DNA of 64,000 bases. Origin: Eledone cirrhosa (Eukaryota). The DNA lies in the NCBI GenBank assembly GCA_964016885.1, contig OZ024742.1:183954001-184018000 (forward strand). The letters run 5' to 3'. Below, piece by piece: positions 19,161 to 50,255 of this stretch (its first letter is position 1; each line of letters begins with the position of its first letter). The notes beneath the pieces are model-generated. The model did not search any database and had not been told where the DNA came from. It saw only the letters and a program-made list of their open reading frames with translations. Both the position numbers and the translations under genes were made by a program.

Positions 19161-19504
19161 GAAATATCTAGACATGCCCTCTGAGACACACATCTACTCA
19201 CACACTCCAATCATTATCATATATGTGTGTGGGTGGGGTGTGGGGTGGGGGTGGGGGTGGGGGTGGGGGTAATTGTTTTCTTTCACTTCATTGTATAATT
19301 TTTTTTCGTTTCTCACAAATCACAATTTCCTACGCTAATATTCTCTTTCTCCTCAAATATTTCATGAAACAGTTTTGTCTCCCATACCTTTCTTTGTTCA
19401 GGACCAATTTTCATTGCAGGATTCATAACATTTTTATGAGGAAATGAGTTCAGATTATTTTGAAGATAAATAAAGTAGAAACAATTATTACCATTATTAT
19501 TATT

Positions 19505-19600
19505 GAGGTTTACTTTGCCTTTAATCCTTACGGGGTCGATAAAATAAAGTACCAGTAATGCACTGGGTAATTGCTGGCCTTGTGCCAAAAGTAGAAACAA
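19505..19600 (+). mobile_element. 5'-truncated SINE family 1, sitting in the ATT tail of an earlier SINE end (19474-19504)
   Basis: Nearly identical to the 3' half of 11159-11338; preceded by GTAGAAACAATTATTACCATTATTATT and followed by (TTC)/(TTA)n. Confidence 0.85.
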
Positions 19601-19622
19601 TTCTTCTTCTTATTATTATTAT

Positions 19623-21744
19623 AGTTGCATTTATCTTGATTTATGTACATAGGAGTTATCACCAAGTCACAACCAGTGACCTCAAGACACAACAAGGTCC
19701 GCCATGTTGAAGAAAGAACATACATACACACACATGCATCTTTAGGTGTTTAGACTTGTGATGTACTTATATTGACAGAATCTTCCTTAGTATATGGGCA
19801 GTTCCCATTAGTACTATCTTTTGTATTTCTCCTATACGCGGGTTTCCTGGGATTTGCGATAAGTAATCATTAGACCCCTTAGGTATCATTCCTAGAGCGC
19901 CTACAACCACTGGTATTGTTTTAGTTCTCAATTTCCACATTTTTCCAATTTCTATCTCCAGGTCCTTATACTTGCTCAATTTTTCAAATGTTTTTATAGA
20001 TACATTCTTGTCTATTGGAACGGACATATCAATTAGCAGGCATACCCTCTTTTTAAAGTCCTTCAGTATTATATCAGGTCTATTTGCATCTATTTTTCGG
20101 TCTGTTTGGATGCTAAAGTTCCACAAGATTGAGATGTGATCTTTTTCAAGTATGGGAGGTGGTTGTTGCTCCCACCAATTCTTTTGATGGGGCAGGTCAA
20201 AATGCTTACACATTATCCAATGTATGTATTGTGCAGCTCTGTCATGCCTGTTTAGGTATTCGGTTGGAGCTATAGGACTGCATATTGAAATTATATGATC
20301 AATGGTCTCTGGTTATTTTTTACATACACGGCATAATGGGTTGCATCCATTTTTTATTATGTTGGCTTGGTAATTTTTTGTTGGCAGACACTGATCTTGT
20401 GCTGATATAATCAGTCCTTCAGTCTCAGATTTCAGTCCAGAGGATGCCAACCACTGATGGGTTAAAGTTTTGTCAACATCAGGATTGTTAGCTCTTTCTG
20501 GGTATTTTCCATACAGAGGCTTTTCTTGCCATTTCTTAGCCAGTTTCTGTAGCAGTTCTTTCTTTGCAGTTATTTTACCTGCTTTGCTTTTTCTGTGTTT
20601 TCCATTTCAGCAGTAAATGGGACTTCTGAAATTTGTAGTCCATTACTGTATCTTTGTGCATCTTTTGTAATGGAGTATGATCTTTTGGTGCTTTCGTGTT
20701 TCAAAACGAGTTTGATCATCCAATCATGTGATTCCCTTAGATATGTAGATAATCCAATTCTTGCAGTTTTCAACGCAATATCTAACTGGATTAACCCACG
20801 TCCTCCTTCTTTCCTAGGGAGATATATTCTATCTGTATCTGCCTTAGGGTGATGCATTCTGTGCATGGTTAATAATTTTTCTAATTTTTGTATCGAGCCT
20901 ACGGATCTGTGCTTGACCAGTTGATGATATTGTAACTGTAGGTTACTACTGGTATGGCAAGCGTGTTTATGGCATCGATCCTATTCCTTGCATTCAATTC
21001 CGTTCTTAAGATTGCTCTTACTCTGCGATAACATTCCTTCCTTATCCTTTACCTCATTGTCGAGTGTTTGATTCCATCTCCTTCACAAACACCTAGATAT
21101 TTGTAAGTTTCCTCTTGATCAAATTCTCTTATCACATTCCCCCGATCAAGATTAATGTCTGAACTTTTCAGCAGCTTTCCTCTGGTGAACGTTGCTTTGG
21201 CGCATTTATCTAGTCCAAACTCCATTTTAATGTCATCACTGAACTGCTCCACAGTGGATAATAGTCCTTGCAATTGTTCATCATTTTTTGCAAATAGTTT
21301 CAGGTCATACATGTAGAACAAGTGATTAATGGTTTTGTCAGAGACTTTGTATCCATGTTTTGTTTCATTGAGCATTTTACTTAATGGTATAAGTGCGATG
21401 CAGAATAAAAGCAGTGATAAAGAGTCACCCTGAAAAATTCCACAATTAATATTAACTTCTCCAGCTTCCAGTGATTTTGTTTCACTATTCAAAAGGAGTG
21501 TCGTTTTCCATGTCTTCATACTGAATGACAAGAACCTCCTGACAACGGGAGATATTTTGAAAATCTCTAAACATTTTTCAATCCAACTGTGTGGCAAACT
21601 ATCGAATGCTTTTTTATAATCTATCCAAGCAATTGATAGATTTTTGTGTCTATTATGACAATCTTCCAGTATCATTTTGCTAACCAAAAGCTGATCCTTA
21701 CAGCCATATGAGCCTCGTTTACACCCTTTCTGCTCATTGGGAAA
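19623..21744 (-). mobile_element. 5'-truncated R4/Dong-type RLE retrotransposon, family A
   Basis: RT ([18 protein letters not shown]), RKEGGRGL, zinc-knuckle region, RLE RPDIIL...LIDMSVP...EKLSKYKDL; (TAA)n tail; frameshift near 20910. Confidence 0.9.
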
Positions 21745-21769
21745 TATTATTATTATTATTATTATTATT

Positions 21770-24700
21770 CCTTGAATCTCAGTCATTGATGTTGGTTAAC
21801 TGGAAAGTCCGTTGGATTGAATATCAAGCCACTACCTGCAGCCTCAGATATTCAGGACGTATCGGAGGGTTCTTGCTGTTCCAAGCAAGCATGCCTTTTG
21901 AAGCGTTCCAAAAAGCGTGAAGGGGCCGATTTTCTTTAACCATCCCTGGAAACTTTTGGAGATAGTCCCCAGTGCGCCTATGACAATCGGGATCACTTTG
22001 ACTTCATGGCAGTTCCAAATCCTTTTCACCTCCCACTTTAGGTCCTGGTATCGGTTAATTTTCTCCCTCTCCTTCTCTTGCACTCTCGTGTCGAACGGGC
22101 AGGCCACATCCACAATCAGGCACGATCTTTTTTCTTTGTCCACAACCACCAGGTCAGGTCTATTGTGTTCCAGTTTTTTGTCCATCTGTATCCTAAAATC
22201 CCACAGCACCTTCACCTGATTGTTCTCCATCACCGCCTCTGGCCTATGCTCATACCATTTCTCAGAATGTGGTAGATTGTTTACTTTGCACAGGTGCCAG
22301 TGGATCACCCTGCCCATCACATCGTGTCTCCAGCCCTTATAGTGGGTCTGGGCTAGGTGTTTACACTCGGACACAATGTGAGCCACAGTCTCCTCTCTCT
22401 CTCCACAGATCCTGCACAGTGGGCTAGCCTCCTCCTTGTAGATATGGTGCTTCAACCACTTCGTTTTGAGGGCCTGCTCCTGCGCAGCCATTAGCATTCC
22501 TTCTGTAGCCTTTTTGAGGTCTCCTCTTCTCAACCAGTTCCATGTCTGTGGATCTCTAAATTCAGTTTTCTCAAAGAAGGTACAATGAAGGGATTTTCCC
22601 TTAAGGCTGCTCTTCCTCCTTGATGTTATTTCCTCCCTGGACATCCCCTGGCCTACTGTCCCCTCCTTCAGTACAGTTCTGAGCATTGGCTCCTTACTAT
22701 AGGTCACGTATTTGTATAGGTTGTTTTTCTCCATCTGAACACAGTCCTCTATGCTGATAAGACCTCTTCCACCCTAAGATCTCCTTAGGTAGAGTCTATC
22801 GACATCACTCCTCTTGTGGAACATGTTGTAGATAGTCAATAGCTTCCTAGTCTTCCTATCCATTTCTTTTTGTTCAGCAACATTCCATCTCAGAATTCCC
22901 GCACTGTACCTAATAATAGACACAGCTCGGGAATTTACTGCGCTTATGGCATTTCTGCTGTTCAGATGTGACTTCAATACGCTCCTTACTCTCCGAATGT
23001 ATTCAGTTCTTAACAATTCCTTCATTTTTTTGTTCTTTATGCCATCAGCCTCCAGAACGCCCAAATACTTGTATCCTTCCTCAGAGTCAATTTCCTTTAT
23101 CATCTCACCTGTTGGTATCTGGATCCCGTTACTTCTGCTCAACCTACCCCTCTTCATCACAATGACTCCACATTTACCAATACCAAACTGCATACATATA
23201 TCACTGCTGAAAATACGGACAGTGTCAACAAGCACATCCAACTCCTTCTCACTTTTCCCGAAGAGCTTAAGATCGTCCATGAAGAGGAGGTGATTGATGG
23301 TAAGCTCTCCCCTTCCCAACTTGTATCCTGCTCTCACTTTTCGCAGCATAATGGTCAAGGGCATCAGGGCAAGGACCAACAACAGAGGGGACAGGCTATC
23401 TCCCTGGAAGATACCTCTCTTGATCTTCCCGCTTCCCAAGGATACTCCAGTTGATGTCAACTCTGTCTCCCAGGACCCCATACTCCTGCCTAGCAACTGT
23501 CTGATGTTATCCGCCACCCTGAAGATCTCCAGGCTTTTGGTGATCCAGGAATGAGGCACCATGTCAAATGCCTTTCTGTAGTCTATCCATCCCATGGCAA
23601 GATCAGTGTGTCTCCTCCTGCAATTCCCCATTACCATCTTATCAATAAGCAACTGGTCCTTTGTACCACGTGACTTCTTTCGGCATCCTTTCTGTTCGTC
23701 CGGTAACAAGTTGTTTGTGTGGAGGTGATGGTAGATTTCCTCAGACACAATGCTCGTCAACAGTTTCCACATTACGGGCAGACATGTGATAGGTCTATAG
23801 TTGGTAGCATCATTACCCTTGATTCGGTCTTTCATTATCAGAACTGTGGTACCTTTTGTCAACCACTCTGGCACCTCACCCGACACCAAGCAGTCATTGA
23901 ACATGGCCGTCAGCTTCGGGTGGAGGGATGTTAGATGTTTAATCCAATACCCCTGCACACCATCTGGGCCTGGTGATTTCCAGTTGGTTAGTTTTTTGGT
24001 TTGCCCCTTAAGAGTTTCAACTGTGATACTCAAATCAGTCTGTTGCTGTGCCTGCTCACCGATCTCCCTCTGTACTGTCTCAATCCACCCTGCCTGGGCA
24101 TTGTGTCTAACATCCTGCTCCCATATTCCTCTCCAGAATGTTTTAGTTTGTTCCGCCCCAGGGATCAAGTCGTTGCCTCTTTCTTTGCCCTCAAGCTGTC
24201 CAAACAGCATCTTCTGGTTGTTGTCGAACATGCGGTTCTGTTTATACTGACTGACTCTGTTCTCGTATCGCCTGATTTTTGCACTCTTTGCTACAATGCG
24301 TTGCTTCAATTCCTCTATGATAATATTTAGCTTTTTACTCCTAGTTTTGTATTTTATTTCCAGTCTATTTTTAGTGCCTATGTTTTTTAGTGTCCCATTC
24401 AGTAGTGACTCAAGCTTTCCTATGTCATTTCTCATTTCCCCGATTTGCCCACTCAGTCGCTTCTTCCACCACGGCTCTGCTCTTTCTTGTCTGTTGTTTC
24501 CTCTCGCTTTTATACCAAGTAGTTTCCTCACCGTATTTGCTGTTGCTCTGAGGATATTGTTGCACTGGTGAAGGCTCCTCGCCTCAAGGTATGGGATGAC
24601 TTTGTTTACCTTAGCTGTTGTTTCTTTTAACTTTTTCCTGTCTACAAATCTTAGGTTCATAGGTCTCCCACTATCATTGTTCAATTCATCTACCACTAAA

Positions 24701-26310
24701 TTTAGGATGTCAACCGAATCTTGTCCTAGCCCGTCAGCATTCATCTCCTCAGTGGCCGTATCTCTGTTCCAGGTATTATTTATCTCAGTACTCAGATCAT
24801 TGTCTGCTTCGGGTGGTTCCTCCGTTCTCAGGACCTCCTCACCTTCATTTCCCACCGGCTCGCTTGTCTGGCATACTACACCCGCCATCTCCAAGCCATT
24901 CTCTCTGCTCAGTTCCTCCAGTTCCAGCTCGCTTATCCACCCATTAGTTCTTATTACCCGAGCCTGCCCGGCCAATTTTTGTTCATCTAATTTAAATAAA
25001 CCAATCTCGTTCCAGATGTTATGCATCCGTCTCCTGTAGCCCCTCTCCTTGGGGTTACTTTTCAGGTAGCATTGCATAACAGTTCTATTCAATTCTTTCG
25101 TCCAGTTGGTTCTGGCCCCTTTCCTTCTTCTCCTTCCTCCAACATCAGCAGTATTTGGTTGACAGTCAGGTTCCTGCTGCTGAGCCAGGGGGCACCTGTT
25201 GGGTGAGAGTCTGTCACATGACGTTCTAGTCTCCATTTCACCGTTATTCGAACTGTTTATGTTCGATATTTAAACACTCTTATCGAGGATTGGCGAATGT
25301 ATGTTTACATAGCCATCTGTGGATCCGCCATCCCACTTGGCCCTTGTGTGGCATTATCACCACGCTGTATACGAACACACATAAACAAACAAACACACAG
25401 GCAGAAAGGGCCCCAAAAATGCATATGCATAAGTTTCATTGTAATGTAGTGTTCGAATGTCTGACTTAGTTTTAGTTTTTTAAGTTTTACTTTTTCCCCC
25501 CTCTTCTCTGTCCGTCCGCCTGCTTCTTTCTTCATTCTTATTTTCTTTACGTTTTTGGGGTTTCTTTTTTTTGTTTTTGTTTTTCTCTGTTTGTTTTTCT
25601 CGTTTTTTGCTGTTGTTGCTGTGCTGCTTTGGTTTTGTTGTTTGTTTTTTCTTTTTTCTTTTGAGTCTATCTATATATTTTGATGCCTTCCTCTTTGTTA
25701 GTAGTAGGAATTCTATAATGTGGAAGTAGCAGCCAGCAGGGGGAAGTGGGAGACTGGCGGCGTTAGCGATACTGAGACAGTGGTGGTGGTGATGTCGATA
25801 CCGAGGCAGTGGTGGCGGTGATGTGACCGTATTACTGTAGTGATGGTGCTGTAGCGGAGTCAAGGGGTGGTGGCGGCGGTGATGGGATAGTGGTGGTAAT
25901 GATGGCCGTAGTGAGCGGTGGCGGTGAAGGTGAAAATGTGTCGTTATCTGGCTGTTGTGTTTAGTGTACACAGATGATGGGGTGGGTGGTGTATCTAGTT
26001 TCTGGTGTTGGTGAGTTTAGCTGTCCTATATAGTGTAGCCAGAGGAGAGGAGGGGGGGGGGGGTTCTTCTTCCATTTATAGCCATTTTTTTTTTTTTGGA
26101 TATACAGTGTACAATACAAAGTTGAATATTTGAATATTTGAGCCTTATAACAATATATTTTGGGTCCGAATTTTTTGGGGCTCAAGCCGGGTGCTTTACG
26201 TAGCATTTGTACTAAGAGTTGTTATTTCACAAATGGTTTAAATATGTTAAAAATTCAAAACTTACGGGAGCGATTTCATGACCTCCGTCACCTCGTGCGT
26301 CTTCTTCCCT
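21770..26310 (-). mobile_element. Full-length R4/Dong-type RLE retrotransposon, copy B1
   Basis: ~1.07-kb 5' UTR, single long ORF, short 3' UTR, (TAA)n on both sides; 5' end identical to B2. Confidence 0.92.
21844..25236 (-). pseudogene. RT-CCHC-RLE polyprotein (1130 codons) split by one in-frame TAG at 22774-22776
   Basis: 820-aa and 296-aa ORFs in the same frame, 13 sense codons apart. Motifs [56 protein letters not shown]. No N-terminal zinc fingers. Confidence 0.9.
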
Positions 26311-26543
26311 TTATTATTATTATTATTATTGAATGCCATGGTTGACGGAGGCTCGGCTCTGTAAGGTATAGTAATTTTTAACCGTTAAAACAATTGTAAA
26401 TTGTTTAAAACTTGAACCAAATTGTTGATAAAGACACCCTCCTCCTCGTGAGAGGGGTCTTTCTGTCCGTTATTTGGCCCTTCGGGGTTAAATAGCCAGT
26501 TATTGGGGTTTTGTACCCAAAATTTCATTTTAAACAAAACAAC

Positions 26544-28643
26544 ATGGCTACCAAAAAAAAAAAATTTCATACGTCACTCCCACTCATTCCGTCTTCTTCT
26601 TCCTCAATCATCACTACAGGAGAGAGAAGATTGTCTCTCTCCCTCCCTTCTTTAAATGTGTCTCTCTCCCTACCTTCTCTTTCGCAAGCGACGAAAGAAA
26701 AGAAAAGTCTCGTGCAAAGCGTGCAAGGTTTCTCCACGACGACGACGACAGCGACGAAACAGGTGTGCGGGAAATACGAAAACCCAGTTCATTCGTCTGA
26801 CGTCAGGAATAATAGCAGTAGCAGCCGTAATAACAACAGCAACAGTGACAATGAAAACAACAGTAGCAGCCGCAACAGCATCACCAGCAGCATAAACAAC
26901 AACAGCATTAGCAGCAGCAACACCAACAACAACCACAGCAACAGCGGCGGAGGCAGTAGTCGTAGTACCTGCAGCAACAACAAAAGTACCAGCAGCTCTG
27001 ACGACAACAACAACAGCAGAGAAAAACCAATCTCATTTGCAGGTATTGCGAAAAACCTGGAAACAATCCTCATAACAAATGAGGAATTAGAGGAAGCGAA
27101 GAAGATGGTGACAAAGAACGGACACCGAGCAATCTGCAAGGCAGCGAAAAATTTTTTCGAAACCCAAGAGCACTGTACGGTCACGTACCGTACAGTAAGT
27201 ACAAAATCCCGTAGGGTGGAAAGAGCCACAGAGGCCCAAATACAAAAAGCCTTGGGGTCTGTGTGGCAGAGGAAAACGCACATCACCCGAGGCAAAAAAT
27301 ACGCCACCGTAGACGTACTTTTTGCCACACCCCAGGAGGCAAAGGCCCAATCAGTAGTGACCCTAAGGAGCGAGGAAATGGTGTTGGTGCCCTCCTACTG
27401 CGGGCAAAAAATTGTGAGGGTCAAACTGACCCACGTCCCCCCCGGAATGACCCCTTCTTGGCTGGCCGCGTCTGTCCTCGTCGGAATCGAGGACAAAACA
27501 ACTGTACTGCAAGTACAGAAAAAAGTAAGAGAAGATTGGGTCGGCTCCTCCATTGAGATGCTAATCCAAACCAACCAGGAGTGCATCGAAGCTATCCCGG
27601 ATGTGATAGACTTCGATAACGGCACTCAACTGCCCATAAGTGTTGAGGGCAAACGCCCGAAATGCTTTCGCTGTGGATCGAAGACTCACCTCAGGGCCTT
27701 CTGCAACGAGAAGACCCTGAGAAAGGAGAAAACCCCCCTCCTCCCGAATCCGGTTCCACGGCTACCAGCAACAGGACAAGCGGCAACCAGGAACGATAGG
27801 TCCGTGGCACCCATACCCACTCCACGGAAATCAAAGACAGCAGCAGCAGTGGAAATATTAACAACAACAACAGCAATACCAAATGCAGCTGCAACAGAGA
27901 CTCCAGTGCAAACATCACCAACAACAACAAGTGAAAGAGTGGAGCTGGTACCCCTCCCCGACCTTACAGAATCAGACATGGAGTGTGAGGTGGGAGAGGG
28001 ATGGCAAAAGGTCTCAAGAAGGCACAAACGCAGAAGCAGCGCATCGTCGCCTTTGAAAAGGGAGGAAAGAAATGAGAAAAGGGTAAAGTCTACTGCAAAG
28101 AGACCCACAGCAGCAACACCACCAACACCATCACCACCCACACCAGCACCACCATCACCACCGGCGACAACCCCACCGCCAACAACACCTTCAACACCAC
28201 CACCACAAGCACCAACATCGCAAACACAACAACAAAACACACACACCCAGCAACAACGACAAGAAAATAGCAGAACCACACCCCACCCCCAGAAAAACAA
28301 ATGCACGGCAATAAACACACACAACAAGAAACTAATGACTTACATAATTGAACACACAGACATTTCACAACAGGACTACATAATACCAGCACCAATCAAA
28401 ACGCCAACTAACATAAGACTGCTAAAAATAGCACAGAAACAATACACAAACATTAAAACGAAATTCCCCAACGCAGTTGGTGATTTCAGGGACCTAGGAG
28501 GAACCATTAATCGAAGAGTATATTCAGACATTCTCTTAGAAGAGCCGACGACCAGCCGAAGGGACGATTCAACGGTCCCTTCACCAGACGATCAAGTGAA
28601 AAGGGATGTAAAAACCATCCCTCCTCTACCAAAAATACGGTAA
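26544..28643 (+). CDS. LINE ORF1 protein (gag-like nucleic-acid-binding), ~699 aa
   Basis: First ATG at 26544 in AACATGG context; Ser/Asn-rich N-terminus, CX2CX4HX4C knuckle CFRCGSKTHLRAFC, basic patch, Pro/Thr-rich tract. Confidence 0.9.
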   Translation: MATKKKKFHTSLPLIPSSSSSIITTGERRLSLSLPSLNVSLSLPSLSQATKEKKSLVQSVQGFSTTTTTATKQVCGKYENPVHSSDVRNNSSSSRNNNSNSDNENNSSSRNSITSSINNNSISSSNTNNNHSNSGGGSSRSTCSNNKSTSSSDDNNNSREKPISFAGIAKNLETILITNEELEEAKKMVTKNGHRAICKAAKNFFETQEHCTVTYRTVSTKSRRVERATEAQIQKALGSVWQRKTHITRGKKYATVDVLFATPQEAKAQSVVTLRSEEMVLVPSYCGQKIVRVKLTHVPPGMTPSWLAASVLVGIEDKTTVLQVQKKVREDWVGSSIEMLIQTNQECIEAIPDVIDFDNGTQLPISVEGKRPKCFRCGSKTHLRAFCNEKTLRKEKTPLLPNPVPRLPATGQAATRNDRSVAPIPTPRKSKTAAAVEILTTTTAIPNAAATETPVQTSPTTTSERVELVPLPDLTESDMECEVGEGWQKVSRRHKRRSSASSPLKREERNEKRVKSTAKRPTAATPPTPSPPTPAPPSPPATTPPPTTPSTPPPQAPTSQTQQQNTHTQQQRQENSRTTPHPQKNKCTAINTHNKKLMTYIIEHTDISQQDYIIPAPIKTPTNIRLLKIAQKQYTNIKTKFPNAVGDFRDLGGTINRRVYSDILLEEPTTSRRDDSTVPSPDDQVKRDVKTIPPLPKIR

Positions 28644-28645
28644 GT
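28640..28645 (+). promoter_or_regulatory. Candidate 5' splice site overlapping the ORF1 stop codon
   Basis: CG|GTAAGT; the same hexamer lies at the ORF1 stop at 9523, 39727 and 44677. Confidence 0.55.
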
Positions 28646-28678
28646 GGTCTTTCCCATCTTTTCCACTCTATTTTAAAC

Positions 28679-31600
28679 ATGACCTCACTCAGAATAGGCA
28701 GCATAAATGCGCGTGGCTTGGGGTCGTCATGGAAGCAGGGTCACCTGCTCAACGACCTCAGGTCACTAAACATAGATGTAGTGGCCATCAGCGAGACCAG
28801 AATCTCCGAAGCACGGGCCTTCGCACCGATCTTCGGCGGCTACGATGTGTACGCATCTCCCAGCCGTCCTGGATCGGGTGGAGGAGTTGCTGTGCTTTTT
28901 CGGAGAGGTTTGGATCTCGCCATACGGGCCATCTTCCTGGACCCAGAGGGTAAGCTGGTGGTGCTGGACGTGACCAGCGGAGACGGGCAAGCTTTCAGGC
29001 TAGTGGCCGTCTATGCCCCGACAGGAGCAGGGCGGCCTGATTTCTTCCGGCGTCTGGAGACCTTTCTTGGAACGTCGCGCTCTTTAGTGTTAGTGGGCGA
29101 CTGGAACGGGATCTTAGATGCACGCTGGGACTGTGTGGGATTAGCGGATAGGGGTGGAGGGTGCAAGAGCCTCACCAACCTGCTCAGGCGTTTTGAACTG
29201 TCTGACAGGTACCGATTGGATTTCCCGAATGTGCCAATGTGGACTTGGACAAACCGCATAGGGTCATCCAGATCATATCTAGATAGAGTATTTTGTAGGG
29301 AAATAGATAGGTCTAGCATAGGCTGTCCACAATTCAAGATAGTCAGCTACACGGACCACAAATTCGTGATCTGTGTGCTTGACTTAGATAGGCTTCATAG
29401 ACGAGGACCCGGCTACTGGAAGCTAAACGCGTCCTTACCAGCGCGCAAGGCCTACAGAGACCGGATTAGCGAACTAGTTAAGCGGGCGTTGACGGGGGCC
29501 ATCGTCAACAACAAGTGGTGGTTTGCTCTGAAAAGAGCGATTAGAATAGAATCGATTAGGTTTAGTAAGGCTTTAGCAATAGAGAAAAATAGAGCAGAGG
29601 GAGAACTAGTTAGAAAATTAGACGAGGCGCTTAGCAAAGGCATTGCGACCGACGTGCTTGCGGCGAAATTGGCCCTTGACCAATTCTTCAATGCAAAGCA
29701 CGAAGGCTGCGTTGTCAGAGCTAGGGTGCGTGCTCTCAGACACGAGGGGACGAAAGCCGTTCAATGGGCCCGAGTGGCGGAGGCGCGTCGTGGCAACAAA
29801 GCCACGATCCGGTCTTTGGTGGACCACGACGGGCGCATGCTACTCGATCCCGGGCAAATGTGTGAAGCTTTTCAGCGACACTTCGCTCAGCTGTTCGGGG
29901 GCAGCGGGGGGCCGGGTAGAGGGATGGACTTTAGTGTCTACCTCGACGGACTGCCGCGGCTCTCGGCCACTGAGGCGAAGTGTTGCGAAAAGCCGATAAC
30001 AGCCGCTGAAGTAAGGGAGGCAATGACTGGCTGCACAAGGGGTAAATCGCCTGGTTTGGATGGTCTGCCCTATGAACTTTACGTACAGATGCCAGACTTG
30101 TTCGGAGGCCTCTTGGCGGACGTCTACTGCAACTGGCAACAGAACGGGAGAATTCCCAGTTCTGTGAGCCGAGGAGCGGTGGCACTGCTGAGAAAGGATC
30201 CGAACAAGGGGGATAACATAGAAAATTTCCGGCCCATAACTCTGCTAAACACAGAGTTTAAGATTTTGGCCAAGGTGCTAGCAAAGAGGTTGGCGCTTGT
30301 CGTTGGTGGTCTGGTGGGAGAGGCGCAGACATGCGCCATTCCCGACAGATCCATCCACGACAACCTCCACCTCATGCGATACATCGTAGAGAGGGTAGCT
30401 AGGGAACCTGGCACGGGTGGGTCCTTGATCAATTTAGATCAGTCGAAAGCTTTCGATAGGGTCGACCATCGTTACCTAGCGGCAGTCCTGAGGGCGGCTG
30501 GCTTTGGGCCCGTCTTCAGAGGCTGGATCGCTGCCATGCACAGCGACATCTGCTCTGTGGTGAGAGTGAACGGTCACCTGTCGGAACCGTTCAACATCAT
30601 GCGCTCGGTCCGCCAAGGATGTCCCCTCTCGTCCCTCTTGTACGTATTGACTCTCGAGCCATTACTGCACAAACTGGAGACGTTGAGGGGAGTCCCGCGC
30701 GAACTAGGATGCGGAAGATCCGTGTCAGCATATGCGGACGATGTCACCGTAGTGGTGTCGAACGCCAAACACATCGAGGCGATCGGCACTACACTAAGAG
30801 AATACGAAGCGGTGACAGGAGCAATGATCAACCAGGAAAAGTCAGTGGGCCTGCAGCTCGGCACCTGGAGAGGCAGGTCCATGCCGTCCAACAGCGTCGT
30901 CGGGCGCTGGACGGACGGACCGGTTAAATTGCTAGGGGTCTGGTTCGGTCCGGACCTCCAGACGGACAAAAACTGGGACGAGGTGACGAGCAGGGTGGCT
31001 TCTCTCACCCAGAAATGGGCGGAGAGGAAGCTATCCCTGAAAGGTCGAGCGGAGGTGGCTAACGCGTACATCGCGTCTGTCATCTGCTACCGCCTAACCG
31101 TCGTACCTTGTCCTAAGCCTCGCCTGACTGCGCTGGAGCGTTTGCTCTTTCGCTTTTTGTGGAAGGGACGTGCTCCGATGGTCAGGCGGTCCATCTGTTG
31201 TCAACACCCGCTACGTGGAGGGCTGGGCATGCCGTGGCTGATGATGCGCAGGCACGCGCTCAGGCTACGACATCTCCACCTCTTCCTCGACGGTGATCAG
31301 GTGTGGTCGCCGTTTGCTAGACGCGTTTTTCCCCAGCTCGTTTCCTTGACGGAGCTGCAGTCCTGGGTCAAGCGAAGACCGAGAGGGAGCGCCTGGAGAC
31401 TGGAATGTCTTCAGGCGCTCACAGCCCTCGACCAATCGGGCAATGTGATCGGTGGAAACTCCACCTCGGCGTTCTATAGAGGATTAGTGGAGGGGAAGAG
31501 CGACGACGTACTTGGGGAAACTCTAGGCGTCGACGAAAATCAACTAGCCAATCTCTTCGGAAGAACCTTCGGGCCAGGGCCTATGGACAACTTCCAGAAA

Positions 31601-32098: not shown

Positions 32099-32239
32099 AC
32101 TAAAGGTGGAAAACTGGGAGAGGGCACTTGCCTTGGTGGTCAGGGTCATTGTGGCTTTTTACTGGGCTTTCTCCACAAATGTTCCTCCGAAGTCTCCCCC
32201 CTATTGGGGAATTTTTCATTGTTATTTTCATTGTTATTT

Positions 32240-32276
32240 TTGTTACATCCTCTATTTTTGTTTTTTTTACACGCAG
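32240..32276 (+). promoter_or_regulatory. Candidate 3' splice site in the Tx1 3' UTR
   Basis: ~80-nt AG-free pyrimidine-rich tract ending TTTTTTTTACACGCAG; equivalent AG at 48301-48302. Confidence 0.45.
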
Positions 32277-32359: not shown

Positions 32360-32421
<62 letters not shown>

Positions 32422-37033: not shown

Positions 37034-37039
37034 ATTATT

Positions 37040-38731: not shown

Positions 38732-41700
38732 ATCGACGCTATCCCCGATATCATAGACATCGAGGAAGGACTCCAACTCCCTATAAGTATAGAAGGAAGA
38801 TGGCCAAAATGTTATCTCTGTGGGTCGAAGGGTCACTTCAGGACCTTTTGCCCGCAGAAGACAGCGAAGAAGGCCCCTCTCCTTCCAATACCTGGTCCGC
38901 TGCTACCAAGAGCAGGGCAGGCAACAAACGAAGAAGCCCCTTCCACGGTGAGTAGGAGGGCAACGTCCGTAGCACCCGTACCAAGGCCACGGACAACTAA
39001 AGCAGCATCATCAGTGGCAGCAACACCAATAGCTACATTTGAAGTAACTAAAATAGCAACAGAATTGCCGAAGAGGGCTCCACTACCACCACCAACAGCC
39101 GTGGAGCACATACCCCTCCCAGACACCACAGAATCCGACATGGAGTTTGAGGCGGGAGTGAAGTGGAAAACGGTCTGCCACAAAAAAAACAAAAAGGAAA
39201 AACTCCTTAGATTCACCCTCCAAAAGCGAAGGCATACAAAGAGGGTTAAAGGCAGAAAGGAAACTTGCAGCAACACCACCACCATCACCACCACAAGCAC
39301 CACTGACAACAACAACCACACCACCACCAGCATCACTAAAAACACCAACAACGCAAACACAACAAGACACACACACCAAACAGCAACAAGAAGAAAACAG
39401 CAACAAAATCACCCCCCCCCCCCCCAAAAAAAAAAGTACAAAGCCATAAACATGGCAAAAAAAAGAACTCATACAATATATAAAGAAGCACACAGACATC
39501 ACAGAAAAAAACTATTACACCCCACCAACACCAAGAACTCCCCCGACAAACATAAGCATCATCGAAATCTCAATAGAACAGTACAAACCTTTAAAACAAA
39601 AATTCCCCAACGCAGTTGGAGACTTCAGAGGGTCGGTTACCAAGAGGATATACACTGACATCCTCTTGGAAACACCCATGACCAGCGAAAGGAACGGTTA
39701 TACTGTCCCTTCACCACACGATCAAGGTAAGTGACCCTTTCTCACTTGCCCCGTTTCTCATCCAACATGGCCGTACTCAGAATAGGCAGTATAAATGCAC
39801 GTGGCCTGGGGTCATCTTGGAAGCAGGGTCACCTGCTCAACGACCTCAGGTCACTAAACATAGATGTGGTGGCTATCAGTGAAACCAGAATCTCCGAAGC
39901 ACAAGCCTTCGCACCGATCTTCGGCGGCTACGATGTATACGCATCTCCCAGCCGTCCAGGATCTGGGGGAGGGGTTGCCGTCCTTTTTCGGAGAGGCTTG
40001 GATCTCGCGATACGGGCCATCTTCCTAGACCCAGAAGGTAAGTCGGTGGTGCTGGACGTGACCGGCAGCGAAGGCAATGCTTTCAGGCTATTAGCCGTCT
40101 ACGCCCCAACAGGGGCAGGACGGCCAGAAGTCTTTTGACGTCTAGAGACCTTTCTTGGAACGTCCCGCTCTTTAGTGTTAGTGGGAGACTGAAACGATAT
40201 CTTGGATGCACGCTGGGATCGTGTGGGGCTAGTGGATATGGGAGGAGGGTGCAAGAGCCTCACCAACCTGCTCAGACGTTTTGAACTGTCTGACAGGTAT
40301 CGACTGGATTACCCGAATGTGCCAATGTGGACATGGACATGCCGCATCGGGTCATCCAGATCGTATCTCGATAGGGTATTCTGCAGAGAACTAGATAAGG
40401 CTAGTATAAGTTGTCCACAATTTAAAATAGTCGACTACACAGACCACAAATTTGTGATCTGTGAGATCGACATAGACAGACTTCATAGACAAGGGCCTGG
40501 TTACTGGAAGCTGAACGCGTCTTTCCCGGCGCGCAAAGCCTACAGAGACCGGATTAGCGTATTAGTTAAGCGGGCGTTGACGGGAGCGGTCGTCAACAAC
40601 AGGTGGTGGTTCACCCTGAAAAGGGCAATTAAAGTAGAGTCGATTAGGTTTAGCAAAGGAGTAGTGATAGAGGAAAATAGAGTAGAGGGAGAGCTAGTCA
40701 GAAAGCTGGAAGAGGCGTTTAAGACAGGCATCGCAACCGATGTGCTTGCGGCGAGATTGGCACTCGACCAATTCTTCAACGCAAAACACGAAGGCTGCGT
40801 TGTCAGAGCTAGAGCGGGTGCTCTGAAACACGAGGGGACAAAAGCCGTCCAATGGGCCCGGGTGGCAGAGGCGCGACGTGGCAACAAAGCCACAATTCGG
40901 TCTTTGTCTGACCAAAACGGGTGCGTGATGCTCGAACCCGAGCGGATGTGTGAAGCTTTTCAGCAGCACTTTGCTGAACTGTTCGGGAGCGGCGGCAGCC
41001 CGGATCGGGGCATGGACTTCAGTGCATACCTCGACGGACTGCCTCGGCTCTCGACGACTGCAGCACAGTGTTGCGAAAAGCCAATAACAGACGGTGAAAT
41101 ACGGGAAGCGATGGCTAACTGCACAAGGGGTAAATCGCCAGGTTTGGATGGTCTGCCCTACGAACTTTATGCATTTATGCCAGACTTGTTCGGTGACCTC
41201 TTGGCAGACGTCTACTGCAACTGGCAGCAGAACGGGAGCATTCCCAGTTTTGTGAGCCGGGGAGCAGTGGAGCTGCTGAGAAAAGACCCGAACAAGGGGA
41301 TGTTATCGATAATTTCAGGCCCATAACCCTGCTAAACGGAGAGTTCAAGATTTTGGCCTAGGTGTTAGCAACGAGGTTGGCGCTTGTCGTCAAGGGTCTG
41401 GTGGGAGAGGTGCAGACATGCGCCATTCCGGACAGATCCATACACGACAACCTCCACCTCATGCGATACATCATAGAGAGGGTGGTTAAGGAACCTGGCA
41501 AGGAGCAAAGGAACAAAGCATTCGATAGGGTTGACCATCGGTACCTGGCGGCGGTCCTCGAGGCAGCCGGTTTCGGGCCCGTTTTCAGGGGTTGGATCGC
41601 AGCAATGTACAGCGACATCTGCTCAGTTGTGAGGGTGAACGGTCACCTGTCGCAGCCGTTCAGCATCATGCGCTCAGTCCGCCAGGGTTGTCCCCTCTCG

Positions 41701-43458
41701 TCCCTCTTGTACGTATTGGCTCTCGAACCGTTACTGCACAAACTGGGGGCGATGAGGGGCGTCCCACGCGAACTAGGATGCGGGAAATCCGAGTCGGCTT
41801 ACGCTGACGACGTCACCGTGGTGGTGTCGAGCACCATACACGTCCAGATGCTCGGCACAGCTCTAAAGGAATACAAAGCGATGACAGGAGCAAAGATAAA
41901 CCAGGATAAGTCGTTGGGCCTGCAGCTCGGCACCTGGAGAGGAAAGTCTATGCCGTCCGACAGCGTCGTGGGGCGTTGGACGGACGGACCGTTAAATTGC
42001 TCGGGGTATGGTTCGGGCCGGACCTCCAGATGGAGAAAAACTAGAACGAGGTGACGAGCAGGGTGGCCTCCCTCACCCAGAAATGGGCCGAGAGGAAGCT
42101 GTCCCTGAAAGGTCGTGCGGAGGTGGCGAATGCGTACATCGCATCCGTCATCTGCTACTGCCTCACCGTCGTCCTTTGCTCCAGCCCAACTCTCACCAAA
42201 ATGGAGCGCCTCCTCTTCCGCTTTTTGTGGAAGGGACGTGCTCCCATGGTCAGACGATCCATCTGCTGTCAACACCCGTTGCGTGGAGGACTGGGCATGC
42301 CATGGCTGATGATGCGCAAACATGCGCCATCTCTGGGGCTTCCTTGATGGTGAACAGGTGTGTTCGCCGTTCGCGAGGCACGTATTCCCACAGCTCGTCT
42401 CCTTGACGGAGCTGCAGTCCTGGGTCAGAAAAAGACCGAGGGATAGCGCTTGGAAACTGGAATGTCTCCAGGCGCTCACTGCCCTCTGCCAGCCAGGGAC
42501 CAGTATCGGTGGAACATCCACCTCGGCGTTCTATAGAGGACTAGTGGAGGGGAAAAGCGACAACATTCTCGGAGAGATCCTGGGCGTCGAAGAAGATCAG
42601 CTGTTTGCTCTCTTCCGGAGAACTTTCAGCCCGGGGCCTATGCATAACTTCCAAAAATCCCTGGCCTGGCAGTGTTACCGGGGAGCGCTGCCGGTTCGAG
42701 ATAAGCTCTACAGGTACGGAAGTGCCGTCAGCCGAGCCTGTCCGAGATACGCGCAGAGCGACGAAACCGTCATGCACGCACTCGTTCAGTGCCCGAGCAT
42801 TGTTGACTTGTGGAGCTATGTCGAACAGTTGCTGTCGCGTGTAGGACTGATCCGGTTGTCGACTGAGTGCATTGTGCAGATGGTCTCGCCGTCTTCCTTC
42901 GAGGAGGAAGGTCAGGCGGTTTTCATCTGCCTGGTTGCCATGGCGAAAGAGATTGGGTGGTGGACAAGGTTAAAAGGGTTAAAGACAGACACTTTCCTCT
43001 TCGGCGAATCCCTAATTAACTTTTTCAAGTTTCACTTGAAGAGGAAAATCAGGGTGGAGAGGCAAGTGCTGCCTTCTAGCAAGTTTGTTGAAAGGTGGGT
43101 GAATGTAGCGAGAATGGTCCGAGTGAACGGGACCGCTCTGAATATACGTCTGTAGTTTGAGAGATGGAAAAATTGAGAGAGGGCGCTTGCCCTGGTGGTC
43201 AGCGTGGCCGTGGTCTTTTGTGTGGTTTTCGCCACGAGTAACCCTCGGAGGTTTCCCCCCTATTGGGGAATTTTTCATTGTTTCAATTTTCATTTTTATT
43301 GTTTATATATATATATGTTTCTATGTCCTTTTTTTTTCTTTTCTTATATACATAATAAAAATATTTACTAGCATAAAACCCACATCGTACCGTCCTGTAC
43401 CGTCTTGTGCCGTCTGTAATGTTTTTCTTGATGTCAGCCCTTGTGGCCAATATAGAAA

Positions 43459-43460
<2 letters not shown>
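38732..43460 (+). mobile_element. 5'-truncated decayed Tx1-like LINE, second subfamily (T2)
   Basis: Starts mid-ORF1 (IDAIPDIID, CYLCGSKGHFRTFC); ORF2 from 39767 broken by stops and frameshifts; 3' end CCCTTGTGGCCAATATAGAAATC + (ATT)10. Confidence 0.9.
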
Positions 43461-43490: not shown

Positions 43491-46400
43491 GAATGCCATG
43501 GTTGACGGAGGCTCGGCTCTGTAAGGTATAGTAATTTTTAACCGTTAAAACAATTGTAAATTGTTTAAAACTTGAACCAAATTGTTGATAAAGACACCCT
43601 CCTCCTCGTGAGAGGGGTCTTTCTGTCCGTTATTTGGCCCTTCGGGGTTAAATAACCAGTTATTGTGGTTTTGTACCCAAAATTTCATTTTAAACAAAAA
43701 ACAACATGGCTACGAAAAAGAAATTTCATACGTCACTCCCACTCATTCCGTCTTCTTCTTCCTCAATCATCACTACAGCAGAGAGAAGATTGTCTCTCTC
43801 CCTCCCTTCTTTAAATGTGTCTCTCTCCCTCCCTTCTCTTTCGCAAGTGACGAAAGAAAAGAAAAGTCTCGTGCAAAGCGTGCAAGGTTTCTCCACGACG
43901 ACGACGACAGCGACGACACAGGTGTGCGGGAAATACGAAAACCCAGTTCATTCACCAACAACAACAAGTGAAAGAGTGGAGCTGGTACCCCTCCCCGACC
44001 TCACAGAATCAGACATGGAGTGTGAGGTGGGAGAGGGATGGCAAAAGGTCGCAAGAAGGCACAAACGCAGAAGCAGCGCATCGTCGCCTTTGAAAAGGGA
44101 GGAAAGAAATGAGAAAAGGGTAAAGTTTACTGCAAAGAGACCCACAGCAGCAACACCACCAACACCATCACCACCCACACCAGCACCACCATCACCACCG
44201 GCGACAACCCCACCGCCAACAACACCTTCAACACCACCACCACAAGCACCAACATCGCAAACACAATAACAAAACACACACACCCAGCAACAACGACAAG
44301 AAAATAGCAGAACCACACCCCACCCCCAGAAAAACAAAAGCACGGCAATAAACACACACAACAAGAAACTAATGACTTACATAATTGAACACACAGACAT
44401 TTCACAACAGGACTACATAATACCAGCACCAATCAAAACGCCAACTAACATAAGACTGCTAAAAATAGCACAGAAACAATACACAAACATTAAAACGAAA
44501 TTCCCCAACGCAGTTGGTGATTTCAGGGACCTAGGAGGAACCATCAATCGAAGAGTATATTCAGACATTCTCTTAGAAGAGCCGACGACCAGCCGAAGGG
44601 ACGATTCAACGGTCCCTTCACCAGACGATCAAGTGAAAAGGGATGTAAAAACCATCCCTCCTCTACCAAAAGTACGGTAAGTGGTCTTTCCCATCTTTTC
44701 CACTCTATTTTAAACATGACCTCACTCAGAATAGGCAGCATAAATGCGCGTGGCTTGGGGTCGTCATGGAAGCAGGGTCACCTGCTCAACGACCTCAGGT
44801 CACTAAACATAGATGTAGTGGCCATCAGCGAGACCAGAATCTCCGAAGCACGGGCCTTCGCACCGATCTTCGGCGGCTACGATGTGTACGCATCTCCCAG
44901 CCGTCCTGGATCGGGTGGAGGAGTTGCTGTGCTTTTTCGGAGAGGTTTGGATCTCGCCATACGGGCCATCTTCCTGGACCCAGAGGGTAAGCTGGTGGTG
45001 CTGGACGTGACCAGCGGAGACGGGCAAGCTTTCAGGCTAGTGGCCGTCTATGCCCCGACAGGAGCAGGGCGGCCTGATTTCTTCCGGCGTCTGGAGACCT
45101 TTCTTGGAACGTCCCGCTCTTTAGTGTTAGTGGGCGACTGGAACGGGATCTTAGATGCACGCTGGGACTGTGTGGGATTAGCGGATAGGGGTGGAGGGTG
45201 CAAGAGCCTCACCAACCTGCTCAGGCGTTTTGAACTGTCTGACAGGTACCGATTGGATTTCCCGAATGTGCCAATGTGGACTTGGACAAACCGCATAGGG
45301 TCATCCAGATCATATCTAGATAGAGTATTTTGTAGGGAAATAGATAGGTCTAGCATAGGCTGTCCACAATTCAAGATAGTCAGCTACACGGACCACAAAT
45401 TCGTGACCTGTGTGCTTGACTTAGATAGGCTTCATAGACGAGGATCCGGCTACTGGAAGCTAAACGCGTCCTTACCAGCGCGCAAGGCCTACAGAGACCG
45501 GATTAGCGAACTAGTTAAGCGGGCGTTGACGGGGGCCATCGTCAACAACAAGTGGTGGTTTGCTCTGAAAAGAGCGATTAGAATAGAATCGATTAGGTTT
45601 AGTAAGGCTTTAGCAATAGAGAAAAATAGAGCAGAGGGAGAACTAGTTAGAAAATTAGACGAGGCGCTTAGCAAAGGCATTGCGACCGACGTGCTTGCGG
45701 CGAAATTGGCCCTTGACCAATTCTTCAATGCAAAGCACGAAGGCTGCGTTGTCAGAGCTAGGGTGCGTGCTCTCAGACACGAGGGGACGAAAGCCGTTCA
45801 ATGGGCCCGAGTGGTGGAGGCGCGTCGTGGCAACAAAGCCACGATCCGGTCTTTGGTGGACCACGACGGGCGCATGCTACTCGATCCCGGGAAAATGTGT
45901 GAAGCTTTTCAGCGACACTTCGCTCAGCTGTTCGGGGGCAGCGGGGGGCCGGGTAGAGGGATGGACTTTAGTGTCTACCTCGACGGACTGCCGCGGCTCT
46001 CGGCCACTGAGGCGAAGTGTTGCGAAAAGCCGATAACAGCCGCTGAAGTAAGGGAGGCAATGACTGGCTGCACAAGGGGTAAATCGCCTGGTTTGGATGG
46101 TCTGCCCTATGAACTTTACGTACAGATGCCAGACTTGTTCGGAGGCCTCTTGGCGGACGTCTACTGCAACTGGCAACAGAACGGGAGAATTCCCAGTTCT
46201 GTGAGCCGAGGAGCGGTGGCACTGCTGAGAAAGGATCCGAACAAGGGGGATAACATAGACAATTTCCGGCCCATAACTCTGCTAAACACAGAGTTCAAGA
46301 TTTTGGCCAAGGTGCTAGCAAAGAGGTTGGCGCTTGTCGTTGGTGGTCTGGTGGGAGAGGCGCAGACATGCGCCATTCCCGACAGATCCATCCACGACAA

Positions 46401-48386
46401 CCTCCACCTCATGCGATACATCATAGAGAGGGTAGCTAAGGAACCTGGCACGGGTGGGTCCTTGATCAATTTAGATCAGTCGAAAGCTTTCGATAGGGTC
46501 GACCATCGTTACCTAGCGGCAGTCCTGAGGGCGGCTGGCTTTGGGCCCGTCTTCAGAGGCTGGATCGCTGCCATGCACAGCGACATCTGCTCTGTGGTGA
46601 GAGTGAACGGTCACCTGTCGGAACCGTTCAACATCATGCGCTCGGTTCGCCAAGGATGTCCCCTCTCGTCCCTCTTGTACGTATTGACTCTCGAGCCATT
46701 ACTGCACAAACTGGAGACGTTGAGGGGAGTCCCGCGCGAACTAGGATGCGGAAGATCCGTGTCAGCATATGCGGACGATGTCACCGTAGTGGTGTCGAAC
46801 GCCAAACACATCGAGGCGATCGGCACTACACTAAGAGAATACGAAGCGGTGACAGGAGCAATGATCAACCAGGAAAAGTCAGTGGGCCTGCAGCTCGGCA
46901 CCTGGAGAGGCAGGTCCATGCCGTCCAACAGCGTCGTCGGGCGCTGGACGGACGGACCGGTTAAATTGCTAGGGGTCTGGTTCGGTCCGGACCTCCAGAC
47001 GGACAAAAACTGGGACGAGGTGACGAGCAGGGTGGCTTCTCTCACCCAGAAATGGGCGGAGAGGAAGCTATCCCTGAAAGGTCGAGCGGAGGTGGCTAAC
47101 GCGTACATCGCGTCTGTCATCTGCTACCGCCTAACCGTCGTACCTTGTCCTAAGCCTCGCCTGACTGCGCTGGAGCGTTTGCTCTTTCGCTTTTTGTGGA
47201 AGGGACGTGCTCCGATGGTCAGGCGGTCCATCTGTTGTCAACACCCGCTACGTGGAGGGCTGGGCATGCCGTGGCTGATGATGCGCAGGCACGCGCTCAG
47301 GCTACGACATCTCCACCTCTTCCTCGACGGTGATCAGGTGTAGTCGCCGTTTGCTAGACGCGTTTTTCCCCAGCTCGTTTCCTTGACGGAGCTGCAGTCC
47401 TGGGTCAAGCGAAGACCGAGAGGGAGCGCCTGGAGACTGGAATGTCTTCAGGCGCTCACAGCCCTCGACCAATCGGGCAATGTGATCGGTGGAAACTCCA
47501 CCTCGGCGTTCTATAGAGGATTAGTGGAGGGGAAGAGCGACGACGTACTTGGGGAAACTCTAGGCGTCGACGAAAATCAACTAGCCAATCTCTTCGGAAG
47601 AACTTTCGGGCCAGGGCCTATGGACAACTTCCAGAAATCTCTGGCCTGGCAGTGCTACCGAGGAGCCTTGCCATTTCGGGATAAACTCTACAGGCATGGA
47701 GGTGCCGTCAGCCGGGCATGTCCGAGATGCGCGCAGGGCGACGAAACCGTCCTGCACGCACTCGTCCAGTGTCCGAAAATTGCTGACTTGTGGGTTTATG
47801 TCGAACACCTGCTGTCGCGTTTAGGACGGATCCGGCTATCATCTGAGTCCATCGTGAGGATTGCCCCGCCCTCCTCCTTTAGCCGGGAAGGGCAAGCAGT
47901 TTTTATCTGTCTGGTGGCCATGGCGAAAGAGATAGTATGGTGGACACGTTTGAAAGGGCTGAAGACGAGCACTTACCTCTTCGGTGATGCTCTGATTGAC
48001 TTTTTCAAATTTCATTTGAAAAGGAAAATCAGAGTAGAGAGGGAAGTGCTCTCTTCCCAGCATTTTGTTGAAAGATGGGTGAGAGAGGCAAGAATGGCCC
48101 GAGTGAATGGGCCTACTCTGAGTATGTGTCTGTAAATTAAAGGTGGAAAACTGGGAGAGGGCACTTGCCTTGGTGGTCAGGGTCATTGTGGCTTTTTAAT
48201 GGGCTTTCTCCACGAATGTCCCTCGGAAGTCTCCCTCGTATTGGGGAATTTTTCATTGTTATTTTTTTGTTACATCCTCTGTTTTTGTTTTTTTACACGC
48301 AGAAATGTCCATTTGTACCGTCCTGTATTGTCCTGTACTGTCCTTAATGTCTACTTTATGTAAACCCTTGTGGTTAATAAAGAAAG
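43491..48386 (+). mobile_element. Defective Tx1-like LINE (T3), same subfamily as T1
   Basis: Intact 5' and 3' ends; ~1.12-kb ORF1 deletion at ~43953, CAA>TAA at 44267, TGG>TAG at 47341 in ORF2. Confidence 0.93.
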
Positions 48387-48411: not shown

Positions 48412-49735
48412 GTTCTTTGAGTCTCAGTCATTGATGTTATTTAACTGGAAAGTTTGTTTAGATGAATATCAAGCCGCTACCCGCAGCCTCAGATATTCAG
48501 GACGTATCGGAGGGTTCTTACTGTTCCCAGCAAGCAAGCAGGCCTTTTGAAGTGTTCCAAAAAGCGGGGCGGGGACTAATCTTCTTTAACCATCCTTGGA
48601 AACTCTTTGAGATAGTACCTAGTGCGCCTATGACAATCGGGACGACCTTGACTTCATGGCAGTTCCAAATCCTTTTTAACTCCCACTTTAAGTCCTGGTA
48701 TCGGTTAATTTTCTCCCTCTCTTTTTCTTGCACTCTCGTATCAAATAGGCAGGCTACATCTACAATGAGGCACGATCTTTTTTCCTTGTCCAAAACCACC
48801 AGGTTAGGCCTATTGTGTTCTAATTTCTTCTCCGTCTGTATCCTAAAATCCCATAGCACCTTCACCTGATCGTTTTCTATCACCGACTCTGGCTTATGCT
48901 CATACCACTTCTCAGAATGTGTTAAATTGTTTACGTTGCATAGGTGCCAGTGCATCACCCTGCCCATCACATCATGTCTCCAGCCCTTATAGTGAGTCTG
49001 GGCTAGGTGTTTACACTAAGATACAATGTGAGCCACAGTCTCCTCTCTCTCCACAGACCCTACACATCGAGCTAGCCTCCTCCTTGTAAATATGGTGTTT
49101 CACCCACTTCGTTCTGAGGGCTTGCTCTTACGCAGCCATTAGCATTCCTTCTGTAGCTTTTTAAGGTCTCATCTTTTTAACCAGTTCCATGTTGTGGATC
49201 TCTAAATTCAGTTTTCCTAAAAAAGGTACTATGAAGGGATTTTTCATGAAGGTTGCTCCTCCTCCTTGTTGTTATTTCCTCCTTGGTCATCCCCTGGTTT
49301 ATTGTATTCTCCTTCAGTAAAATTTTGAGCATTGGCTCCCTACTGTCAGTCACATATTTGTGCAGATTGTTTTTCTCCATCTGAACACAGTCCTCTATGC
49401 TGATAAGACCTCTTCCACCTTCAGATCTCTTTAAGTAGAGTCTATCGACATCACTCCTCTTGTGGAACATGTTGTAGATAGTCAATAGCTTCCTAGTCTT
49501 CCTATCCATTTCTTTTTGTTCAGCAACATTCCATTTCAGAATTCCCGCACTGTACCTAATAATAGACACAGCTCGGGAATTTACTGCACTTATGACATTC
49601 CTACTATTTAGATGTGATTTTAATACGCTCCTTACTCTCCTTGTGTACTCAGATCTTATCAATTCCTTCATTTTTTGTTCTTGATGTCACCTGCCTCCAG
49701 AACACCTACATATTTCTATCGCTCTTCAGTGTCAA
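48412..49735 (-). mobile_element. 5'-truncated decayed R4/Dong-type copy B4
   Basis: Homologous to the B1 3' third (DVDRLYLKRSEGGRGL, RPNLVV..IVDVAC) with frameshifts; (TAA)n tail. Confidence 0.88.
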
Positions 49736-49744
49736 TTATTATTA

Positions 49745-50016
49745 TCTGTTTACTCATCAGTTCATCCTTCTCTACCGGCATATGAAGCGGTGTTCTGCGG
49801 CCTTAAGTATATTTGGCACCCTTGATATGATTCTTGCTGTGCCATGCAGACAAGCTTTCTCGAGAGTCAGGAAATTCACCTCTTTGTCCAACATCTTTAA
49901 CCAATCCTTCAAACAACTGACTTCTGTCCCTAAGTCTCCTATAACAATTGGGATGATAAACAATTTGCGACAATTTCTGATTTTCTGTATTTCGTATTTC
50001 AGGTCAAGGTACTTTT
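49745..50016 (-). mobile_element. Short 3' fragment of a third RLE-type family (C)
   Basis: KYLDLKYEI...IIPIVIGDLG...LEKACLHGTARII, an RLE C-terminal signature, following a short ATT run. Confidence 0.7.
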
Positions 50017-50034
50017 CTACTACTGTTACTACTA

Positions 50035-50255
50035 GAGCGGTAAATTAGCAGTGTGGGTAGAGCATCGGACGAAATGCTTTGAGGTATTTAGATACGACTT
50101 ATGCGTTCTGATTTATAATTCGTCGAGGTTAACTTTGCTTTTCATCCTTACGGAGTCGATAAAATAAAGTGCCAGTAACACAATGGGGTCGATTTAACCG
50201 ACTTTCTCCTTCCATTCAAATTGCTGGTCTTATGCCAAATGTATAAACAATTATC
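50035..50255 (+). mobile_element. tRNA-derived SINE, family 1 (older copy)
   Basis: Shares GAGGTTAACTTTGC..TCATCCTTACGG.GTCGATAAAATAAAGT and the 3' end GGTCTTATGCCAAATGTATAAACAATTAT. Confidence 0.8.

Follow-up and report, generated by a model that had tools for sequence, protein, structure and literature searches.

Positions 19474 to 50255 of a 64,000-nucleotide stretch of the Eledone cirrhosa genome (contig OZ024742.1, positions 183,954,001 to 184,018,000; hereafter the window, to which all coordinates refer) hold a stack of retrotransposons of two unrelated classes. These are Dong-type elements with a restriction-like endonuclease (RLE) and L1/Tx1-type elements with an apurinic/apyrimidinic-type endonuclease (APE), accompanied by a short interspersed element (SINE). 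Probably (about 0.68), this array grew by repeated target-primed insertion into ATT tracts and by one unequal crossover, the Dong-type elements nicking one strand of the tract and the Tx1-type elements and the SINE the other. Target-primed reverse transcription is an established mechanism, in which the endonuclease, or else base pairing between RNA tail and nicked end, would suffice to fix polarity. In our model, the (ATT)n strand would be nicked by the Dong-type elements A, B and C, which would therefore lie in minus orientation. For the Tx1-type elements and the SINE, the nick would fall on the (AAT)n strand, at a short ATAA(T) site, which would give them plus orientation. Target would be left on both sides of each insertion, allowing later elements of either class to land between earlier ones. 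As the insertion chemistry would fix the strand, the polarity of the array needs no selection. From the anatomy of the array, a mosaic copy, shared tails and target duplications, all of which were observed directly, we infer the nick positions, the partnership of the SINE and the order of events.

Almost the whole array is mobile-element DNA (30,471 of 30,782 bp). ORF (open reading frame) lists, self-comparison and translated searches gave the order SINE end, SINE(+), A(−), B1(−), T1(+), B2(−), B3(−), T2(+), T3(+), B4(−), C(−), SINE(+). This confirmed the order, the strands and the near-absence of unique DNA claimed by a sequence-only reading of the stretch. The same reading proposed that each class occupies ATT tracts in one constant orientation, opposite to that of the other class, and this is supported at this locus. 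The window contains 11 ATT tracts of at least three units, nine of which are array junctions. The only plus-strand AAT tract lies outside the array, at 52677, and none is found at an array junction. Nearly every junction had been described as plus-strand (ATT)n; this holds for 9 of 11 internal junctions, but not for B3/T2 (38730) and C/SINE (50020-50036). At B3/T2 two 5′-less ends meet beside a short local duplication. This joint is deletion-like, and a later deletion would have fused B3 to T2. A tandem duplication of approximately 47 bp at 38600-38735 suggests a repair scar. All six RLE pieces are on the minus strand, as had been noted, but by their sequence they represent at most five independent insertions, because B2 is a mosaic of B1 and B3. 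Likewise, all three Tx1-type copies of the array are on the plus strand, but the 5′ head of B1 and B2, on the minus strand, is Tx1-like, with similarity to a 5′ UTR (untranslated region) and the start of ORF1.

B1 (21770-26310, minus strand) is a full-length Dong-type element with a single ORF starting at the ATG at 25236. The ORF matches the reverse transcriptase (RT) profile RVT_1 (E = 1e-21), its C-terminal segment aligns to the R2 endonuclease (E = 0.007-0.01), and CCHC and PD..D/E.K endonuclease motifs are visible in its C-terminal part, the latter as PD..D..K. This architecture, together with insertion in (TAA)n in coding-strand orientation, is that of Dong; A, B1 and B4 are flanked by the repeat on both sides. 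We use the label Dong-type on these grounds, the protein matches being unnamed or 'uncharacterized'. A (19623-21744, minus; 5′-truncated and frameshifted) is separated from B1 by a 25-nt ATT tract (21745-21769). It belongs, like C (49746-50020, minus), to a family distinct from B, with 32-48% amino acid identity to B1. C is a 3′ fragment of a third Dong-type family and shows 48% to the C-terminus of B1. Within family B, the internally deleted and 5′-truncated B3 (37040-38730, minus) differs from B1 by 6-8% and the 5′-truncated B4 (48412-49734, minus) by about 10%. A and B4 are truncated, yet carry ATT on both sides. As a tail alone cannot give a repeat on the 5′ side of a truncated copy, this points to insertion into a pre-existing tract. 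A contig of run X5 extends 634 letters past the truncation point of A.

We also inspected 14 B-related loci, which are apparent animal DNA inside prokaryote assemblies. A TAA-type tract of at least 12 nt, always on the coding strand, is held by six, and the other eight have none. The tracts lie at element junctions in L055, L057, L060, L061 and L063 and less clearly in L062. L055 to L064 represent animal-type Dong retrotransposons in bacterial genome assemblies, probably through host contamination of the records, and L057 has two Dong 3′ ends in tandem within AAT tracts. The relative in L055 begins after TAA93 with a foreign-looking head (38-300 of that locus). This head seems to resemble the 5S rRNA internal promoter and the CORE motif CCTTGGGAAAG and may be a captured SINE head; Rfam found nothing in it. 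A hepatitis delta virus (HDV)-like ribozyme was detected in B neither by Rfam, which was also blank on five relatives, nor by two descriptors run without a positive control, which a 7-bp helix near 25416 failed to fit. No relatives of T or B were found among viral contigs. The ORF is interrupted in both B1 and B2 by a TAG codon (22774-22776 in B1); programmed read-through was considered and rejected, as B4 and the family have a sense codon there.

The plus-strand elements are represented by T1 (26331-32361), whose two ORFs are both open. ORF1 (26544-28643; 699 amino acids) combines RNA-binding folds with a CCHC knuckle, a part of it resembling CCHC/ZCCHC3-type clusters at 0.88-0.93, and ORF2 (28679-32098; 1139 amino acids) has the order APE, RT and zinc finger. 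The best solved relative of ORF2 is human L1 ORF2p (E = 1e-52), which by sequence places T1 in the L1 group, and its closest named relative is a protein of Argonauta hians (70%). The Tx1 label is based on this architecture; no named Tx1 reference was among the matches. T3 (43491-48386) belongs to the T1 subfamily and differs from T1 by only 0.9%. It has a 1.1-kb deletion in ORF1 and a nonsense codon at 47341-47343, and is preceded by ATT30 and followed by ATT25 (numbers after ATT give tract length in nucleotides). We rejected T1 and T3 as a DNA duplicate, since their neighbours differ on both sides and the differences are spread. Both start at the same base after ATT, so that the two intact T 5′ ends of this one locus are both at ATT. 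T2 (38731-43460) is a 5′-less, degraded Tx1-type element that differs from T1 by 18%; no ATT separates it from B3. An older, rearranged and composite Tx1-type relic (or relics), T0, is found outside the array (about 6300-11019). It is internally deleted, about 73% identical to T1, and ends in the shared tail and ATT14 at 11019. It has a palindromic head and is preceded at about 6240-6310 by a tRNA-promoter-like stretch with A and B box look-alikes, recognized by eye. Between ORF1 and ORF2 of T0, T1, T2 and T3 we noticed a splice-donor-like GGTAAGT (9522, 28636, 39722 and 44673) followed by a pyrimidine run and AACATG. The ORF1 frame over this stretch differs between families, and the stretch may be an RNA-level signal.

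Evidence for insertion into existing tracts comes from the T1 site, which is present in two forms. The filled form reads B1/ATT21-T1-ATT66/B2 (tracts at 26310-26330 and 32362-32427), the empty form B2/ATT72/B3 (36968-37039), and the 66-nt and 72-nt tracts have the same imperfect end. T1 thus entered a pre-existing tract. The implied target duplication, 21 + 66 minus 72, is 15 nt, a soft figure given that tract lengths slip, and falls inside the 12-17 bp range of the SINE duplications described below. The two forms exist side by side through B2 (32428-36968, minus). Over 417 bp (32420-32836), imperfect tail included, B2 shows no difference from B3 and 23 from B1. Beyond this part it differs from B1 by only two substitutions and poly-G length in 4.1 kb, and it has the same 5′ junction. 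The switch falls within 22 identical bases (32815-32836). B1 and B2 also share the private TAG: in run X1, C, the family letter at 22776, accounts for 354,107 of 354,379 depth, a comparison that covered 19400-32385 and in which depth is not a copy number. Several letters private to A had zero depth in X1, which therefore cannot be taken as confirmation of this locus. From the raw-read runs X22 and X23 only 3 and 9 reads aligned, and the contig runs end at ATT tracts. On this evidence B2 is likely a DNA-level duplicate and not an independent insertion, at odds with the view that every copy is a separate one. An unequal crossover between a T1-bearing allele (B1-ATT-T1-ATT-B3) and a T1-less allele (B1-ATT-B3), in which the 3′ end of B3 recombined with that of B1, would yield B2 and give exactly the order seen, as would a mis-join of haplotypes. 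As the mosaic copy shows, recombination (or mis-assembly) can lengthen such stacks, so that counting copies overstates the number of insertions.

All four T ends and seven SINE ends have a common terminal motif before ATTAT (the pattern was drawn from both), and about 22 nt of terminus are common to SINE and Tx1-type ends. A matrix built from Tx1-type ends alone ranked four SINE ends 5th to 8th of 127,910 positions, directly after the training sites, and two more 12th and 21st; the T ends were the only ends among the long interspersed element (LINE) clades of the host that entered this comparison. Target duplications of 12-17 bp were found for four of seven SINE copies examined, all of them dispersed, and three gave none. 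All four duplications start with (A)TTAT and lie in unique DNA, against a background of 0.93% TTAT per position. The copy at 11142-11355 (plus strand), for example, has a 17-bp duplication starting ATTAT; other dispersed copies lie at about 2806-2985, 14495-14690 and 62474-62651. The SINE is likely mobilised by the Tx1-type element, judging from these shared ends. If so, a short motif is what the T machinery requires, and (ATT)n tracts simply offer it at high density. The APE-side target therefore looks like short (A)TTAT and not like a long microsatellite, and the idea of the APE element as a microsatellite specialist is not supported as it stands.

Four other explanations have to be weighed. 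The mosaic could be an assembly artefact in which T1-bearing and T1-less haplotypes were joined in tandem where the 3′ end of B3 is 94% identical to that of B1. Such a join predicts the structure of B2 exactly as the crossover does. Like two alleles, B1 and B2 differ by two substitutions, the length of a poly-G run and the lengths of tracts, and no aligned read or contig piece spans the B2 stretch. The switch is clean, however, within 22 identical bases and with no mixed letters on either side, and we regard a mis-join as doubtful. The 5′-most 0.9 kb of B1 and B2 could be a separate Tx1-type fragment inserted in minus orientation, an exception to the claimed polarity. The first 250 nt (26043-26292 in B1, 36703-36950 in B2, minus strand) match a profile of three Tx1-type heads in nhmmer (E = 4e-5, 18 bits), compared with a maximum of 4.5 bits for 40 local shuffles and a best E of 5.8 for the reversed window; each source head alone gave only E = 0.2-1.3, and the bias score was high. 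The head is followed by low-complexity ORF1-like sequence, and Tx1-like sequence is not expected in the untranslated region (UTR) of a Dong element. By its sequence the head would be either a captured 5′ UTR or such a fragment. Neither an ATT/AAT tract nor a Tx1 3′ motif lies between the head and the B ORF, and the Dong relative in L055 also has a foreign-looking head. Moreover, depth (not a copy number) falls smoothly through the head in X1 and X5, two organisms, as for 5′ truncation, and this weakly favours capture. A separate fragment thus appears somewhat unlikely.

The remaining two explanations concern polarity. The Tx1-type endonuclease may be only loosely selective, with pairing between an (AUU)n RNA tail and the nicked DNA end setting site and strand, and only Dong being sequence-specific; there would then be no convergence of endonucleases. 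In line with this, SINE insertions in unique DNA make do with 4-8 nt that resemble ATT, all T and SINE copies end in ATTAT and T0 lacks a 5′ tract, and annealing of RNA to target has been proposed for SART1 (PMC7265360). On the other hand, T1 and T3 have an identical start point behind ATT, the duplications hold one phase, and targeting in the Tx1 clade is ascribed mainly to the endonuclease (PMC4494074). We hold tail pairing to be a real, if tentative, possibility. Very improbable is a selected safe harbour that doubles as a dual-strand source of PIWI-interacting RNAs (piRNAs), with read-through of one class antisense to the other. The convergent pairs T1/B2 and T3/B4 are present and molluscan piRNA clusters are transposon-rich (PMC6128900), but in T ends the tail is closely preceded by AATAAA or a variant of it, transposable element hotspots are common in an octopus genome (288 windows; PMC13282606) and the polarity already follows from insertion chemistry, so that these roles are unnecessary to explain the array. 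Several observations weigh against target-primed insertion on opposite strands as we propose it. The evidence comes from one locus. The 5′ side of T0 shows neither an ATT tract nor a duplication, and none of 54 distant L1/Tx1-like metagenome loci (21-48% best-segment identity) has an ATT or TAA tract. Pairwise similarity of the SINE tail reaches significance for T2 (0 and 4 of 1000 shuffles) but not for T0, T1 and T3 (74-430 of 1000). Finally, the one-base gap allowed in the T-end matrix was suggested by the SINE, the duplication at T1 is no firmer than its tract lengths, and the mis-join accounts for B2 equally well.

TRAS and SART of Bombyx mori are two families that, like those of the array, lie in opposite orientations on one repeat, in their case (TTAGG)n (PMC7265360). 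Both belong to the APE class and to a single clade, R1, and occupy telomeres, whereas in the array RLE and APE elements share an interstitial triplet repeat. Dong elements of the R4 clade from B. mori, Anopheles gambiae and Biomphalaria glabrata resemble B in their single ORF with RT, CCHC and restriction-like endonuclease and in being flanked at either junction by TAA in coding-strand orientation. TAA is the described target of Dong in silkworm, mosquito and snail (PMC3812793), so the Dong half of our finding is known biology. B differs in its head, which is like a Tx1-type UTR, and B. mori Dong has an HDV-like ribozyme (PMC3774820), in contrast to B, where none was detected. Octopus vulgaris has 1129 recent Dong-R4 insertions, and both Dong-R4 and L1-Tx1 have been recently active there, with 288 hotspots; the available text gives no targets (PMC13282606). 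The Tx1 families Kibi in (TC)n, Koshi in (TTC)n and the crocodilian families in (TTCC)n/(TTTC)n share with T the two ORFs, the APE endonuclease and repeat on both sides, while the target of T is ATT-type, apparently a short motif, and common to an RLE element. The source on these TC, TTC, TTCC and TTTC families, which counts a family as target-specific when more than 20% of copies are flanked by one target, names no ATT target in its available text (the tree figure lay outside the comparison) and suggests that they may move SINEU (PMC4494074). SINEU and Tx1-Mar of crocodilians are a pair like the one proposed here, a SINE probably mobilised by a Tx1 family with a target preference in common (PMC4494074), but the array SINE is tRNA-type, shares its 3′ terminus with T and uses an (A)TTAT site. 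Utopia (RLE) and Keno (Tx1, APE) reach one target, the U2 snRNA genes, in parallel (PMC4640811), yet at the same site with the same 3′ flank and not on opposite strands of a microsatellite.

Each principle, Dong at TAA, opposite-strand sharing of a repeat and RLE/Tx1 convergence, is therefore known, and the underlying principle is not new. We did not find the RLE/APE combination on ATT with a SINE partner in the literature searched, nor an ATT-targeting Tx1 element, a mixed Dong/Tx1 array or an octopus SINE paired with a Tx1 element; Repbase, Kojima and Fujiwara 2004, figures and most supplements were outside this search and could hold one. ATTAT and ATT repeats are likely a new target for L1/Tx1-type elements, and T is a candidate for the element that drives a SINE very common in octopods. 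With two unrelated enzymes on one substrate, the array also lends itself to testing what determines site and strand, the endonuclease or the pairing of the RNA tail. A wider proposal, which we consider speculative and on the whole improbable, is a three-party octopod ATT niche. Here, the Tx1-type endonuclease would cut (AAT), the abundant SINE would scatter ATT seeds, Dong would cut the opposite strand, and Dong B would use a captured Tx1-type promoter. If true, this would be the first RLE/APE pair to split one microsatellite by strand, with a promoter swap across clades.

The array is bounded by SINE sequence on both sides, all on the plus strand. At the left a SINE 3′ end (19474-19487) matching the SINE terminus is followed by a 5′-truncated tRNA-type copy (19505-19599), which lies behind ATT12 (19493-19504), is 97% identical to the dispersed SINE at 11244-11341 and leads into (CTT)3(ATT)4. 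At the right an older, full-length SINE (50036-50250), without ATT at its 5′ side, closes the array. ARAGORN found no tRNA genes, and Rfam matches in the window were TA-repeat noise. LINE-like fragments lie at about 52200-53590. The region 53509-59776 has TA tracts of great length, whose flanks are duplicated (53655-54631 and 58807-59776, 91% identity). Near the start of the window, a 410-bp near-perfect inverted repeat (1407-1816; 97.8%) beside a TA tract may be a miniature inverted-repeat transposable element or an assembly fold-back.

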